Source: a virus
Direction: 5' to 3' (one strand)
Length of the DNA stretch: 64,000 bases
IMG/VR virus record: IMGVR_UViG_3300034082_004296
Span: 1 to 64,000 of that record
Shown here: positions 1 to 4,256 of the stretch, in pieces
How positions within the stretch are numbered: the stretch's first letter is position 1
Layout: each line of letters opens with the position of its first letter
Translations under genes and position numbers: made by a program
The notes under the pieces: model-generated
Seen by the model: the letters and a program-made list of their open reading frames with translations, nothing else
The model's database searches: none
What the model was told of the DNA's origin: nothing

Positions 1-2
1 CG

Positions 3-287
3 TTAGCAGCCATTAAATGACCGCCACAATTCGACAAACTCTTCCCTTTTCATTTGTCTTAATTCTCTATTGTCGGCATATTTTCTTTCGTGGTAAATTT
101 CAATTTCGCTCCCACCAGTGAAGTAAACGGAATATCTTAACCAAGAGCTATCGCCACCAACTTTACCAACTCTTTCAATTTTTCGTAAATCAATCGTATC
201 GCCTCCAATATCAACCAAAGGATTAACGGCTGCTAACACATTATTTGCGTCAGTGGGGGTTTCGTGCTTTTTAGAATCTGTCTGCAT
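3..287 (-). CDS. hypothetical protein in attC-bounded cassette
   Basis: 94-aa ORF; starts inside attC-like site and its TAA stop lies in GGCTGCTAAC at the window edge. Confidence 0.6.
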   Translation of the reverse strand: MQTDSKKHETPTDANNVLAAVNPLVDIGGDTIDLRKIERVGKVGGDSSWLRYSVYFTGGSEIEIYHERKYADNRELRQMKREEFVELWRSFNGC

Positions 288-365
288 ATTTTAAAGTTTT
301 GTGCTGTTAATAATCTTTAGTGGTGTAATGCCCCACCGAACGCAAATAATCGGAACGTTATAAGT
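229..365 (-). mobile_element. attC-like recombination site (long, ~133 bp)
   Basis: minus strand TTATAAC ... GTTAGCA ends; inner inverted repeat attatttgcgtcagtgggg (240-258) / ccccaccgaacgcaaataat (331-350) with an extra base. Confidence 0.65.
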
Positions 366-373
366 AATAAAAA

Positions 374-592
374 TTAAATACCAAGTGTATCTTTTAAATG
401 TTCATTTCCACCAGAAAGTAAATCATTTTTAATCACATAACATAATTGATATTTATGAATTCTACCTATATAATTTCCAGTCAAGCGATTTGAAAACACC
501 AAGAATTCATCACCCTGTGACCAAGGTTCATCATAAATATCAATTTCAAAATTATGATATATTACCTTACAAACATTTAAAAGATTTTCCAT
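374..592 (-). CDS. hypothetical protein in attC-bounded cassette
   Basis: 72-aa AT-rich ORF flanked by a ~24-bp inverted repeat (357-380 / 600-624). Confidence 0.55.
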   Translation of the reverse strand: MENLLNVCKVIYHNFEIDIYDEPWSQGDEFLVFSNRLTGNYIGRIHKYQLCYVIKNDLLSGGNEHLKDTLGI

Positions 593-615
593 ATTTTTTT
601 ATTTAATTTTTACAT

Positions 616-671
616 ACTTATAACAACAAATAAATCACATTAACACAATGGTTTACTTGCAACTGTTACAT
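616..671 (-). mobile_element. attC-like recombination site (short, ~55 bp)
   Basis: minus strand ATGTAAC-AGTTG-CAAGTAAA-C-CATT-gtgtt-AATG-TGA-TTTATTTG-TT-GTTATAA imperfect hairpin overlapping the 3' end of the HAD gene. Confidence 0.5.
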
Positions 672-1036
672 GTTTTTTTCCACTCAAAGTGATCAACGTT
701 CACTGGCCTACAAGGATCCTGCCCTTCAGATATCTTCATGAGTTCATCAACGTCATCATCAAGATGAAAGGCAAATCCTTGACTCTTTATCCAATGGATC
801 TTAGCAGCACCATTTGTAAACACGATCCTTTCCTTAGGGATACCGCACTCTTCTGCGACGCTAAACACTGTCAGATTCTGTTGCTCTATCCAGGGCCAAC
901 CCTTTTCCATACCGGCTTCCGCAGAGTATCTAGAGGTGATTATCCAGACTTCATGGCCAGATTCAACTAGGGACTTTGAATATTCCTGCACGTCGATGCG
1001 ATTTAGCGTACCATCAAAATCAAATGATACTTTCAT
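653..1036 (-). CDS. HAD-superfamily hydrolase
   Basis: DFDGT motif I, ITSR motif II, HLDDD motif IV. Confidence 0.8.
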   Translation of the reverse strand: MKVSFDFDGTLNRIDVQEYSKSLVESGHEVWIITSRYSAEAGMEKGWPWIEQQNLTVFSVAEECGIPKERIVFTNGAAKIHWIKSQGFAFHLDDDVDELMKISEGQDPCRPVNVDHFEWKKTCNSCK

Positions 1037-1405
1037 CTATTTTTTAGTTAGGTCTTCGTGAGAATAGTATGTGCTTTCTATCTGGCCGAGCTCGTAGTTA
1101 CCAGTTGGCTCCACTCGAACAACGTAAGCTTCCACTCTAGGTTTCTTGTCGTATTCAAATCGAGCATCCATTTCTCGCAAGACACGTATCTCCTGCCCAA
1201 TGGCTTCAGCAAGTTCCTTTAGCTTATCTAGACTTAAGGTAAGGTCAATATCACCATACCAGATCTTGGTAGGAGTCGGTTCCATCACAATAAGATTAGA
1301 GTTAAACACGGCTAGGTTCTTGGGATTACGATTACAGTATCCAGACTTAGAACCGGAAATCATTATACCAGCGAAACCAAGTAATTCAATAGCTTTTTCT
1401 TCCAT
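1037..1405 (-). CDS. hypothetical protein
   Basis: 122-aa ORF, promoter at 1420-1448 upstream. Confidence 0.7.
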   Translation of the reverse strand: MEEKAIELLGFAGIMISGSKSGYCNRNPKNLAVFNSNLIVMEPTPTKIWYGDIDLTLSLDKLKELAEAIGQEIRVLREMDARFEYDKKPRVEAYVVRVEPTGNYELGQIESTYYSHEDLTKK

Positions 1406-1419
1406 TTTATCTTTTTGAT

Positions 1420-1448
1420 ATTATACTAAGAAAAATGTAAAAGTTAAA
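1420..1448 (-). promoter_or_regulatory. putative early/middle promoter
   Basis: TTTAAC-N17-TATAAT on minus strand; similar motif recurs about 10 times. Confidence 0.55.
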
Positions 1449-1570
1449 ACTTTGCGACCTGTTTGAGTTAAATATAATTAGAGCCTGACACTCTAGTCGG
1501 CGTCGAGTTTATAACTCTTGAGCGGTGCATGCCGCAAAGGCGTCTGCTTAATAAAAATAACAGGTAAACT

Positions 1571-2332
1571 ATGTACTTTACACACACAGCGGGCACAATT
1601 AGCCCAACTGCAAACATTGCAGTAAACAGAAATCGCCTAAAACACTACGGCGAAACAGTCTATCTAAAGAGCGGAACTCATTTTGAGATCGAACTCTTTA
1701 ATCCCAAAACAACAAAGGTCCTTGCTAAGATCTACCTCGATGGAGTCTCAATCTCCGAATCAGGAATAGTGATCAAGCCAGGACAGAGAGTCTTCCTAGA
1801 GAGATGGATTGACGAACCTAAAAAGTTCTTATTTGAGACCTATGAAGTCGATAAACAATTTAGACTAGTCGCGGAAGCAATTAAACACAATGGCAGAGTA
1901 CGAGTCGAATTTTACGATCAAGTGATCTTATCCCCATCTAACATGGCGATTTTCCCAAGTACCTCAACGTGGACGTATGATCCTACGAGTCAGCCAGTTT
2001 ATGGTGGAACAACTCAAAACCAGATCTATTTCACGTCTTCTTTTGCTGGATCAAACGATGTGATCGGAACCCGCACATTGGGTAATTCAGAGCTAACCAT
2101 GAACTTCATGGAGACGGGTCGTGCAGAAAAAGGAGAAGCATCAGATCAAGCATTCACAAGTGATAATTCTTCTTACAATTCGTGGACATGTAATACGATT
2201 CATCTACAGATCCTACCTGAATCTCAAAAACCGGTAGAAGTGAAAGAGATTAGAAACTATTGCACAAATTGTGGAACTCGCCACAAAAAATCGAGTTGGA
2301 AATTCTGCCCTAATTGCGGAACAAAAATCTAA
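1571..2332 (+). CDS. hypothetical protein with C-terminal zinc ribbon
   Basis: C-terminal CTNCG...CPNCG; beta-rich N-terminal domain. Confidence 0.75.
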   Translation: MYFTHTAGTISPTANIAVNRNRLKHYGETVYLKSGTHFEIELFNPKTTKVLAKIYLDGVSISESGIVIKPGQRVFLERWIDEPKKFLFETYEVDKQFRLVAEAIKHNGRVRVEFYDQVILSPSNMAIFPSTSTWTYDPTSQPVYGGTTQNQIYFTSSFAGSNDVIGTRTLGNSELTMNFMETGRAEKGEASDQAFTSDNSSYNSWTCNTIHLQILPESQKPVEVKEIRNYCTNCGTRHKKSSWKFCPNCGTKI

Positions 2333-2353
2333 ATTTAAAGTCAGGCTCTAATG

Positions 2354-2380
2354 AAGGATCTTGAAAGGGATCCTTTTTTT
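2354..2380 (+). terminator. intrinsic terminator
   Basis: aaggatc-ttgaaagg-gatcctt followed by T-run. Confidence 0.75.
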
Positions 2381-2389
2381 GTTTTATAA

Positions 2390-2397
2390 GATAAATA
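2390..2397 (+). promoter_or_regulatory. T4-type late promoter
   Basis: GATAAATA just upstream of ATG 2415; motif recurs before >25 genes. Confidence 0.65.
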
Positions 2398-2414
2398 ATA
2401 AAAAAATTATTATA

Positions 2415-2741
2415 ATGTCAACATTTAATACTATTCACCTTTTTGGATTCGGTGATGCTCAAATCATCGGAAAAGAAAACAATGGTACTGTCGCATCAGA
2501 GGCTCTAACTAACCTTACTGCGTTTGTAGATCACATCAAGACATTTAAACCAGATGAAGTCACTCTTACTGATTATCATGTTATTCATATATTTAACGAA
2601 ACAGACGTTCGTTATTTGGGTAAAGGCACTGAAGTTAAAACAGATAAGACTAATTTTACTGTAAAAATTTCAGAAGTTGACCCTACTATTTTGGGTAACT
2701 TAGTTGATGAACTAGCGGCGGCCGTTATACCTAATACTTAA
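2415..2741 (+). CDS. hypothetical late protein
   Basis: start moved to ATG 2415 (MSTFNT) because the 2361 start overlaps a terminator and late promoter. Confidence 0.65.
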   Translation: MSTFNTIHLFGFGDAQIIGKENNGTVASEALTNLTAFVDHIKTFKPDEVTLTDYHVIHIFNETDVRYLGKGTEVKTDKTNFTVKISEVDPTILGNLVDELAAAVIPNT

Positions 2742-2776
2742 AAATAAACCAAAAATATGTCATTTATCAATTGGGG
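2739..2776 (+). repeat. 38-bp direct repeat, copy 1 (copy 2 at 3330-3367)
   Basis: taaaaataaaccaaaaatatgtcatttatcaattgggg identical in both copies; covers start region and MSFINWG codons. Confidence 0.9.
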
Positions 2777-3329
2777 ACATGAAAGTCCCGAGCAACGTAA
2801 AGCTCGTCAAGAGTGGGAAGATCAAATAATGTTTGAACAGATGTCCTACAGTGCCGCAGTTGTTGCTGCAGCTGCCACTGGTTCAGGTGGACTAAAAAAA
2901 CCTAGTGAATTTGTAGGAGAGGTCGACTGGTTAGTCGTTGCATCAACTGTGTTTACTCCTCCTGGAACCGACAACTATGAGGACTTCGACAACTGGGTCA
3001 CTGACACTTTTACACCTCTACTTGGTGTAAAGAGACTTGTGATAGTTGCTGATTCTGCGAATGCTCACACTCACGAAGAGCCATTTACCGATCTTACGAT
3101 CCAATTATTTAATAGTGTGACCTCTACCTGGACAACAGTATGGTCTTATAACCTCGTAAATCAAAACTATCCAGGCGGTGAAGGCGATGACTACTTTTTT
3201 AATGGTATCGACGTTACCTTTCCAGAGGTTGCATCGGTGACCAAGATCCGACTTACCTCTGATCCTGGCATAGGTCAGACATATCACGATTGGGGTCAGG
3301 ACTCTACACTGTTTAAATTCTATAAATAA
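2757..3329 (+). CDS. MSFINWG-leader family protein 1
   Basis: shared ~45-aa N-terminus ending in poly-Ala/GSGG; beta-rich unique body. Confidence 0.8.
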   Translation: MSFINWGHESPEQRKARQEWEDQIMFEQMSYSAAVVAAAATGSGGLKKPSEFVGEVDWLVVASTVFTPPGTDNYEDFDNWVTDTFTPLLGVKRLVIVADSANAHTHEEPFTDLTIQLFNSVTSTWTTVWSYNLVNQNYPGGEGDDYFFNGIDVTFPEVASVTKIRLTSDPGIGQTYHDWGQDSTLFKFYK

Positions 3330-3347: not shown

Positions 3348-4256
3348 ATGTCATTTATCAATTGGGGTAGTGAGAGCCCAGAACAATTAAAAGCTCGTCG
3401 AGAGATGGAAGAACGTATGATGTTTGAACAGATGTCATATAGTGCAGCAATAGCTGCGGCAGCCTCCGCTGGCGGAAGCCTAGATCCTTTACGAGGTTTA
3501 TTTGGAGTAGGAGCAGACGGTCTTATCTATAACCTAGGTAGAGGTGAGGCAAATTGGCCGTTTGATTCTGAGTCATTTCCTAGCTCGACAGTAATCACTC
3601 TAAACACGGATGATGATTGCTTATATGCGGCAGTCGATTTCGATGGGGAAGTATTTTTTATAAAGATCGACAAGACGACTAGGAAATGTTTGTTTTTTGA
3701 AAATGACATCAGCGATTATGTAACAAAGGGATCAAGCTCTCTGTATTATGAAGGTGATGGACGTTTTATCTACTTAGATAACTTTATCAAGAAGAGCGAT
3801 GTTTCTAGTATTATTCGAGTGACGCTAACCGAGTCGACAGCTGACGCTACTGAGGTTTCCGAAGTAGACTCGGTTGAAAAAGGATACTTGCTTAGAAACC
3901 TCTTCATATATGATGGAACTCCTTGGGCGATCGCGTACTCTGGACCAACCGTAATAATCGGGCCATTCGATATTGATGAGGGTGACTTTGTTTATTCTAA
4001 CCTTCTTCTTCCTTCTCCTAGCGATACTAGAGTGGAGGAAATACTTGCAGTATTCAGCACAGTCGAATATAATGGCACAGTATACTCAGCGATTGTTTTT
4101 GCAGATTCTGAACTGAGCGGTGATCCAAATATTGGACTCTTTAAAGTTGATACTGAGACTGGTGGTGCACTTGCTCCATACTATGTCTCATTCATCAAGG
4201 ATCTAAACCTTGCAGGTCATGGAGAAGTGCCAGTATTATCAATATTTAGTTACTAA
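3348..4256 (+). CDS. MSFINWG-leader family protein 2
   Basis: same leader; acidic beta-rich body, possibly propeller-like; TATAAATA at 3321-3328. Confidence 0.8.
   Translation: MSFINWGSESPEQLKARREMEERMMFEQMSYSAAIAAAASAGGSLDPLRGLFGVGADGLIYNLGRGEANWPFDSESFPSSTVITLNTDDDCLYAAVDFDGEVFFIKIDKTTRKCLFFENDISDYVTKGSSSLYYEGDGRFIYLDNFIKKSDVSSIIRVTLTESTADATEVSEVDSVEKGYLLRNLFIYDGTPWAIAYSGPTVIIGPFDIDEGDFVYSNLLLPSPSDTRVEEILAVFSTVEYNGTVYSAIVFADSELSGDPNIGLFKVDTETGGALAPYYVSFIKDLNLAGHGEVPVLSIFSY

Follow-up and report, generated by a model that had tools for sequence, protein, structure and literature searches.

The window analysed here comprises the first 64 kb (64,000 nt) of a single viral contig of 176,210 bp (IMG/VR record IMGVR_UViG_3300034082_004296; contig G000), so that its position 1 lies at a contig end. 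The question raised by this end is whether its minus strand carries an array of mobile gene cassettes comparable to those of integrons and, if so, which enzyme could move them. A preliminary description made from the sequence had proposed an integron-like array of attC-bounded cassettes in a jumbo phage. This integron-like reading is largely supported: positions 1-668 represent, with a probability of about 80%, the recombinase-distal end of such an array. The contig has a G+C content of 36.7%, is devoid of a terminal repeat and is estimated to be 70% complete; as relatives measure 210-219 kb, a jumbo phage is likely, although the 176-kb size of the contig itself falls short of proof.

Four co-oriented open reading frames (ORFs) are found on the minus strand (1405-1037, 1036-653, 592-374 and 287-3), the first 668 nt forming a chain that alternates between TAAC...GTTA elements (hairpin sites) and GTTA...TAAC elements (cassette bodies). 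Every inverted repeat claimed beforehand was found again on re-examination. Indeed (i) the repeat 2-16/223-237 is 15 nt long, with 14 of 15 positions paired and a G.T on the minus strand as the odd pair, (ii) the repeat 240-259/331-350 (20 nt) is 80% complementary, and (iii) the repeat 357-378/603-624 (22 nt) is 77% complementary. The complementarity of the two ends within each cassette was likewise confirmed (237-223 with 16-2; 624-600 with 380-357). The sites do start with TAAC and end with GTTA, as proposed, but their limits were refined from 671-616 and 365-229 to 668-621 and 360-234, respectively.

Site A (621-668, minus strand) is a short, slightly decayed hairpin of 48 nt (TAAC...GTTA) whose stem contains nine Watson-Crick pairs, one G.T pair and one mismatch, and in which an A replaces the G that follows TAAC. 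Its loop (TGTGTTAATG) is similar to the consensus of small sites (TCGTTTTAATG); the site resembles the small-type site of a related locus (L267) and is 88% identical to an intact site with a 12-bp stem elsewhere in the array of a 210-kb relative of the window's phage (G001). Site B (234-360, minus strand) is a 127-nt hairpin with the layout TAAC-G-TTCC-G, 5' arm, loop, 3' arm, GTG-TTA, and its loop contains a start codon (287-285) and ten leader codons. ORF 287-3 had been listed after the long hairpin site, but it actually starts within the loop of site B, so that positions 223-237 and the 3' arm are coding. Only the first bases (TAAC-G; 1-5, minus strand) of a third site, site C, precede the contig end, and this site is continued in another contig (L004). 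Cassette body 1 (357-624, minus strand; GTTA...TAAC) is a 268-nt imperfect palindrome with self-complementary ends and exact nested arms (368-380/600-612, 389-402/572-585 and 444-458/531-545), and encodes a 72-aa protein with its own start codon (ORF 592-374). Cassette body 2 (2-237, minus strand; GTTAGCAGCC...GGCTGCTAAC), with an inverted repeat at its ends, forms ORF 287-3 (94 aa) together with the leader from site B. Folded as DNA, the region 350-630 adopts a single long hairpin (z = -6.5, 0 of 200 shuffles). The folds of the sites alone are weaker and limited to the minus strand (229-365, z = -2.0; 616-671, z = -2.1); the value for site A on the plus strand is 0.0.

These sites belong to a recurrent design. 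A descriptor (TAAC, a spacer of 2-9 nt, a stem of at least 9 bp with at most one mismatch, a spacer of 0-5 nt, GTTA) matched the 176-kb contig only once on both strands together, at site B. It matched related loci 218 times, against 13 matches in shuffled copies and barely any in 28 control loci retrieved with an unrelated gene, and the matches line up in tandem on one strand, with a single small ORF in each interval. An unbiased set of 322 unique sites and 264 bodies, from loci retrieved by the recombinase described below and by nothing else, yielded the consensus TAAC-G-N4-stem...stem-N-T-GTTA, which sites A and B fit. The G after TAAC is present in 90% of the sites, and site lengths cluster in the 120s, 80s and 40s of nucleotides. 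The elements follow one another in the order TAAC-G-N4, a stem of about 12 bp, a fixed G.T pair, a second helix, a loop and the stems back. The second helix, left free by the descriptor, is paired at 4.7 of 8 positions beyond the G.T pair, versus 2.3 of 8 in controls. Structure is retained despite varied sequence, with 93 distinct stem arms among 136 sites. Isolated non-Watson-Crick pairs are mainly G.T, with G in the 5' arm and T in the 3' arm (327 G.T versus 33 A.C in site stems, 121 versus 4 in body stems), and most of these G.T pairs occupy one fixed position, giving a GTT/AAT box located one to two helical turns from the AAC/GTT box. This wobble bias suggests that it is the coding strand which adopts the fold.

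Site B also behaves as a module independent of the genes around it. A search with the 94-aa protein retrieved, in addition to full-length relatives, nine contigs matching its first 20-32 residues only, and the DNA alignment of these nine contigs showed the whole 127-nt site B in common between unrelated flanks on both sides. A 24-nt pattern from its 3' arm was found in 45 IMG/VR stretches, on contigs of 2 to 219 kb; in more than 40 contigs with unrelated flanks, conservation is sharply bounded by TAAC, just before the G, and by GTTA. Each listed copy has an ORF of 29-145 aa that begins with the ATG of the loop, and the 43 distinct ORFs share the leader ...TPTDANNVL... and have wholly different bodies. 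A role of this leader as a capsid-targeting or export signal was considered and set aside, because what is conserved is the DNA sequence, with the non-coding 5' arm included, up to GTTA.

At nearly every site B locus, the 8-15 nt following GTTA are the reverse complement of a TAAC-ending sequence placed at or just past the stop codon. These pairs of cassette ends are locus-specific and covary (GTTAGCGGC/GCCGCTAAC, GTTACCTGC/GCAGGTAAC, GTTATCGCC/GGCGATAAC and GTTATGTGAG/CTCACATAAC), and the TAAC of the body is followed by G and then usually by another hairpin, different in sequence and identical in build. Among the 264 bodies, cognate ends match at 8.2 of 12 positions beyond the core, versus 4.3 of 12 for non-cognate ends and 4.2 of 12 for flanks facing each other across one site in situ. 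Furthermore, body 1 and its homologue in locus L260 differ by compensatory changes in the end boxes and in the inner arms. An absence of covariation had been named in advance as a ground for abandoning the integron-like reading; both the hairpins and the cassette ends covary.

The preliminary description had postulated a tyrosine recombinase while noting no integrase in the window. Indeed, none is encoded there or in the whole 176-kb contig. Contig L004, however, is 100% identical to window positions 127 to 1 and continues past the window edge, where it carries (i) a site of about 229 nt, the third of the series, whose loop encloses a 58-aa ORF, (ii) an 'empty' hairpin (GTTATGTTC, 11-nt loop, GAACATAAC), and (iii) the motif TAAC-TATTATATATA, followed by a gene coding for a tyrosine recombinase of 240-267 aa, which starts about 0.4-0.5 kb beyond window position 1. 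The sites thus do not stop at position 1, and the predicted enzyme is present just past it. Separately, positions 4359-4505 of L004 are a 99.3% identical copy of the last 147 nt of the window's contig (G000 176064-176210), in an orientation opposite to that of a simple circular closure of this contig; this could stem from paralogy within a gene family (MNKEQII...), from a strain-specific inversion or from a misjoin.

The link between this enzyme and the arrays extends to many other phages. In the 210-kb relative G001, about 25 sites are followed directly by a gene for a 266-aa tyrosine recombinase in the same orientation, and the recombinase is likewise located at the array end in G002 (89.7 kb) and G009 (68 kb, complete). 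A retrieval based on the recombinase alone led to 80 IMG/VR loci being kept out of 133 relatives (63-100% identity, contigs of 4-362 kb). In these loci, 371 co-oriented sites are found upstream of the recombinase in 466 kb versus 28 downstream in 659 kb, and the opposite strand alone carries 10 sites upstream and 13 downstream. Of the 52 loci for which at least 2 kb of upstream sequence is available, 51 have a site and 48 have two or more; in 51, the array ends with the recombinase gene, which is oriented like the cassettes. Many contigs of this set end inside or beside the array, as does the window's contig. Every array in loci L100-L179 terminates in the motif TAAC-TAT(T/A)ATATATA, which lies 60-70 nt before the start codon of the recombinase gene; an 'empty' hairpin (GTTAnnnnn-TCGTTTTAATG-nnnnnTAAC) often precedes the motif. 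This motif is a candidate for an attI-like entry site, or alternatively for the promoter of the recombinase gene.

The recombinase family has the domains PF00589 and PF13495. Its best NCBIfam models are a XerA/integron-integrase model and an integron-integrase model, both below their cut-offs: the proteins of L004, L085 and L086 score 186-190 bits on NF040815, their best model (cut-off 220), and 162-170 bits on TIGR02249 (cut-off 265). The copies of four very different phages share 61-75% identity, and the full set of catalytic-type residues (RVSE, HxxRH, GHS and EIYTH) is invariant in them. The nearest solved structures are XerA (4a8e), with which the enzyme aligns end to end (E = 2.5e-37), and VchIntIA (2a3v), for which the alignment is broken between residues 171 and 209, about 48 residues being absent. 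On these sequence grounds, the recombinase is an intact member of the Xer/IntI clade.

Comparison of related arrays revealed rearrangements with sharp limits. Stretches of 1828 nt (100% identity) and 960 nt (99.9% identity) are common to the arrays of L117 and L130, yet the same block is placed differently in each, being the last unit ahead of the recombinase in L130. The junctions fall exactly after TAAC, even where the continuation is unrelated (TAAC-GTCCG... versus TAAC-TATTTTATATA...). In L072 and L167, a 97%-identical body is flanked by sites that are only about half identical, close copies of body 2 occur in L001-L004, in array contexts other than that of the window, and L001 contains a chimeric site whose 5' half is of one type and whose 3' half is that of site B. 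Informative pairs for the linkage of a body to its upstream or downstream site are few, and some loci are flipped by palindromic sites, so these observations are used as single cases. The closest comparison for the window is L267, which shares three left-flank genes, including the syntenic gene for a HAD-family hydrolase (60-72% aa identity; HAD, 61%), and whose recombinase is 82% identical. Between these flanks, L267 has 10 sites in about 3.45 kb, compared with about 1.05 kb here, and no body in common. A fixed gene order in relatives, which would have spoken against mobile cassettes, is therefore not what is seen: the flanks are the same and the cassettes are others.

The array is bordered on its left by the conserved gene for the HAD-family hydrolase (653-1036, minus strand, 127 aa), whose final four codons and stop codon fall within site A. 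TAAC comes directly after the conserved Cys codon of the motif ...HFEWKxxC, and four site-encoded codons (NSCK) end the protein, in place of which the homologues have 6-17 other residues. It had been suggested that the array landed in the 3' end of this gene. This is plausible at most. In L267, the array begins 5 nt past the HAD stop codon. No empty site could be recognised among HAD-bearing relatives: of the 26 closest HAD loci, 24 lack an array downstream, at a distance too great for them to be regarded as empty sites.

Taken as a unit in cassette orientation, the element consists of the HAD flank, sites alternating with one-gene bodies, the motif TAAC-TATWATATATA and the recombinase gene. 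In the mechanism proposed here, the folded site would be recognised by the recombinase, strands would be exchanged at the AAC/GTT core, and units would be excised as circles, reinserted and reordered. New units would probably enter at the TAAC-TAT... motif beside the recombinase gene. The complementary body ends (GTTA-a ... a'-TAAC) would extend the outer helix of the site in the circle. The sites are located upstream of their genes and often provide a start codon and a short leader, as site B does for ORF 287-3. Xer enzymes can act on folded single-stranded phage DNA, for example attP of the CTX phage.

The likeness to integrons is extensive. As in integrons, one-gene cassettes stand in tandem in a single orientation, the sites are imperfect palindromes whose only fixed letters are AAC...GTT, with a four-box layout (AAC, GTT, AAY, GTT), the ends of each cassette are complementary to each other and not to those of its neighbour, content is variable between conserved flanks, and a tyrosine recombinase of the Xer/IntI clade is encoded at one array end, next to a terminal site of its own kind. 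Many unrelated genes are served by one and the same site type, in the manner of the Vibrio repeats (VCRs). However, the recombinase is shorter (240-270 aa), lacks the IntI insert and, in phages, is encoded on the cassette strand at the 3' end of the array, whereas intI is upstream and divergent, next to attI and a Pc promoter. The sites are located 5' of their gene, often holding its start codon; compared with attC, they have an internal loop of 5 nt against 1-2 nt, a 12-bp stem and a G.T pair that replaces the extrahelical bases, the canonical attC geometry being one of 7-bp R and L boxes with 5-nt spacers. Here the better-paired strand is the coding strand, in contrast to the bottom strand of integrons, and recombinant junctions occur on both sides of the site. 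Of the system proposed in the preliminary description, the cassettes, sites and recombinase hold, but a canonical IntI integron does not: the enzyme is Xer-like, is placed downstream and goes with another geometry.

A more specific version can be put forward tentatively, and we would give it somewhat less than an even chance: the system would be a mirror image of an integron, operated by an ordinary Xer-type recombinase. It would be the coding strand, rather than the bottom strand, that is folded and exchanged, and the sites would therefore travel at the 5' end of the cassette and provide a translation start. Entry would take place at the 3' array end, at a TAAC-TATWATATATA site adjoining the recombinase gene. 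Recognition would rely on the AAC/GTT box and the GTT/AAT (G.T) box, making the IntI insert unnecessary, and Bacteroidota phages and host chromosomes would trade counter-defence and other small genes from one shared cassette pool.

Several observations weigh against the integron-like reading. No tyrosine recombinase is encoded in the window's 176-kb contig, and its link to the window depends on the near-identical contig L004 and on relatives. Two phage genomes that CheckV estimates as 100% complete, G007 (36.6 kb) and G008 (41.1 kb, with terminal repeats; loci L057 and L072), carry multi-site arrays and no tyrosine recombinase; their arrays would need a recombinase supplied in trans, by the host chromosome or by a co-infecting phage. 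The enzyme is without the approximately 48 residues that include the IntI-specific insert, which in integrons contacts the extrahelical bases. Both sides of a site act as recombination points, which would not be expected from a single integron-type crossover. Some junctions lie in near-identical sites of 48-114 nt, for which homologous recombination would suffice. Finally, the strong bias of wobble pairs towards the transcribed strand is also compatible with an RNA structure.

This last point leads to the best-surviving alternative, which appears unlikely: the hairpins would be RNA elements on the cassette mRNA, a stem closing every intergenic region and every ORF, and would act in processing, stability or translation control, with turnover by homologous recombination and exchange as in the PeSL cassettes discussed below, the nearby recombinase being a lysogeny or dimer-resolution enzyme. 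The pairing bias is what such elements would leave, since G.T (G.U in RNA) is found almost exclusively on the sense strand; the stems enclose the ribosome-binding region and the start codon, and the body-closing stems could form in situ on a single transcript. The L117/L130 junctions within repeated sites and the chimeric site of L001 are also compatible with homologous exchange, and related integrases have been interpreted by Bartlau et al. (PMC8776804) as temperate markers. However, breakpoints stop at AAC or GTT despite no homology beyond (e.g. TAAC-TATTTT versus TAAC-GTCCG), neither the invariant AAC/GTT core nor the fixed GTT/AAT box has an obvious role in RNA, and, as read from the sequences, no T runs follow the stems. 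A recombinase of one family, in constant orientation, at the array end in nearly every one of 80 loci is also not accounted for by RNA elements.

Still less probable is a fossil array, fixed in the window and retained as promoters, leaders and gene ends. The decay of site A (A for G after TAAC, one stem mismatch), the small size of the array here (3-4 units) and the persistence of arrays in complete recombinase-free genomes (G007 and G008) go in this direction, but the recombinase gene after the array is intact in the near-identical L004, site B and both body-end stems are intact, the stems of body 1 are maintained by compensatory change, and L267 has wholly different content between the same flanks. 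Enzymes of the IS200/IS605 (Y1 HUH) or REP/RAYT type cut beside hairpins and insert 3' of a fixed tetranucleotide, here TAAC, and transfer of the units by such a single-strand 'peel and paste' transposase, although in line with the hairpin strand bias and with insertion always after TAAC into units that end in TAAC and so permit tandem insertion, is very improbable given that the window's contig has no match to a Y1 transposase (PF01797), that the gene associated with the arrays encodes a classical tyrosine recombinase (PF00589) and that the layout AAC...GTT...AAT...GTT is typical of tyrosine-recombinase sites.

Returning to the integron-like array, integrons are regarded as a bacterial, and lately also archaeal, invention that depends on a special IntI domain. 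If the present reading is true, folded-site cassette recombination arose, or persists, without the IntI insert, and a cassette system with integron logic operates in virulent-type and giant phages with a shorter, Xer-like enzyme and in the opposite orientation. It would provide a concrete mechanism for 'hyperplastic' regions of phage genomes. Compared with the Xer recombinases (XerC/D and the archaeal XerA), the enzyme aligns end to end with XerA; unlike Xer systems, the present one involves no dif-like site, and the enzyme goes with arrays of many hairpin sites.

No description of this recombinase-array system was found in the literature, where only predicted attC sites in Polaribacter phage P12002L came close. 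Qi et al. 2023 (PMC9892861) predicted clusters of attC sites lacking integrases (CALINs) in 17 phages, including P12002L, in which HattCI/Infernal flagged two sites; one predicted P12002L attC site was reported to be recombined by IntI1, which hints at function, although it could not be matched to the sites found here. In the P12002L genome, sites of the present design adjoin DNA methyltransferase genes. CALINs are treated in that study as stray integron parts without an integrase, and neither a dedicated Xer-type recombinase, nor long arrays, nor a wide spread among Bacteroidota phages and chromosomes is part of it. The nearest phage analogue without a recombinase is the PeSL (promoter early stem-loop) cassettes of T4-type phages (Arbiol et al. 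2010, PMC2839356; Comeau et al. 2014, PMC4122927). Like the present sites, they are small repeated stem-loop intergenic modules that flank non-essential genes and mediate their gain, loss and swapping, and mini-circles have been reported. Unlike the present sites, they are promoter-terminator motifs, in which a strong sigma-70-like early promoter adjoins a terminator stem-loop, are thought to act by homologous recombination, and have no dedicated recombinase, AAC/GTT core or complementary cassette ends.

Bartlau et al. (PMC8776804) read related integrases of the phages Freya, Leef and Ingeline as signs of a temperate lifestyle; in array-bearing phages, an 'integrase' of this family should not be read as evidence of lysogeny. 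The variable block of Polaribacter phage Freya and Cellulophaga phage Ingeline were considered as members of the system and excluded, as they have few or no strict hairpin sites. In its own right, the Freya comparison (loci L095-L098) shows that Freya_10 (MT732472.1) and Freya_1 (MT732463.1), with aligned flanks 100% and 99.9% identical, differ by a 4.9-kb block of 12 small ORFs located directly upstream of a 36%-identical integrase; a 20-nt direct repeat with ACAAC as its last letters flanks this block, in which strict hairpin sites are few.

Regarding the distribution of the system, recombinase relatives in bacterial assemblies belong almost all to Bacteroidota, and to judge from the genomes compared the system is common among Bacteroidota phages. 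Several Flavobacterium chromosomes contain the same sites, in arrays convergent on the recombinase gene, which points to a gene pool common to Bacteroidota phages and Flavobacterium chromosomes. More distant chromosomal relatives of the recombinase (38-50% identity) have no co-oriented upstream sites, and several of them have arrays on the other strand.

The array cargo, as predicted from sequence, consists mostly of small proteins of no assigned function, the identifiable ones being of counter-defence types. Among the 100 longest cassette ORFs of the unbiased set, about 88 have no Pfam match; the others include four DNA methyltransferases, Tad6 (a Thoeris inhibitor), an RNA ligase, an exoribonuclease, an Arr-like ADP-ribosyltransferase and GNAT acetyltransferases. 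As the identifiable cargo comprises methyltransferases, Tad6 and an RNA ligase, the uncharacterized cassettes could be a promising source of counter-defence proteins.

The two small ORFs of the window are, in view of their relatives, real genes: a large protein set contains four relatives of the 72-aa protein (65-93% identity), and the 94-aa protein has 46. Pfam searches on both returned nothing except a sub-threshold match to DUF3850, peptide patterns of ORF 374-592 gave no match in IMG/VR, and neither megablast of positions 1-3000 nor tblastn of both ORFs gave a match in cultured phages. A self-search of the 176-kb contig revealed no copy elsewhere of anything in positions 1-700, and Rfam, with E up to 10, returned only a chance psbNH match in positions 1-1600.

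Next to the array, the HAD gene has 93 relatives in IMG/VR and homologues in 76 phage records annotated as HAD hydrolase (tblastn, residues 1-125 covered), and its C-terminal tail past WKxxC is variable between homologues. In L260-L263, about 60-200 nt after the target gene (L260:3340-3480), a tRNA-like sequence (GGTGGCGGAATGGTAGACGC...GGTTCGAGTCCTGTCCTGAC) follows the array; its central part varies by contig, and ARAGORN calls no tRNA in L260. Divergent from the HAD block, a gene on the plus strand (1571-2332) codes for a 253-aa protein with a C-terminal zinc ribbon (PF13248/PF13240) and is kept beside HAD in L267. Further along the plus strand, two adjacent genes (2757-3329 and 3348-4256) code for proteins with a nearly identical N-terminus of about 45 residues (MSFINWG.ESPEQ.KAR...MFEQMSYSAA) that diverge thereafter, which resembles a duplicated or shuffled N-terminal module.

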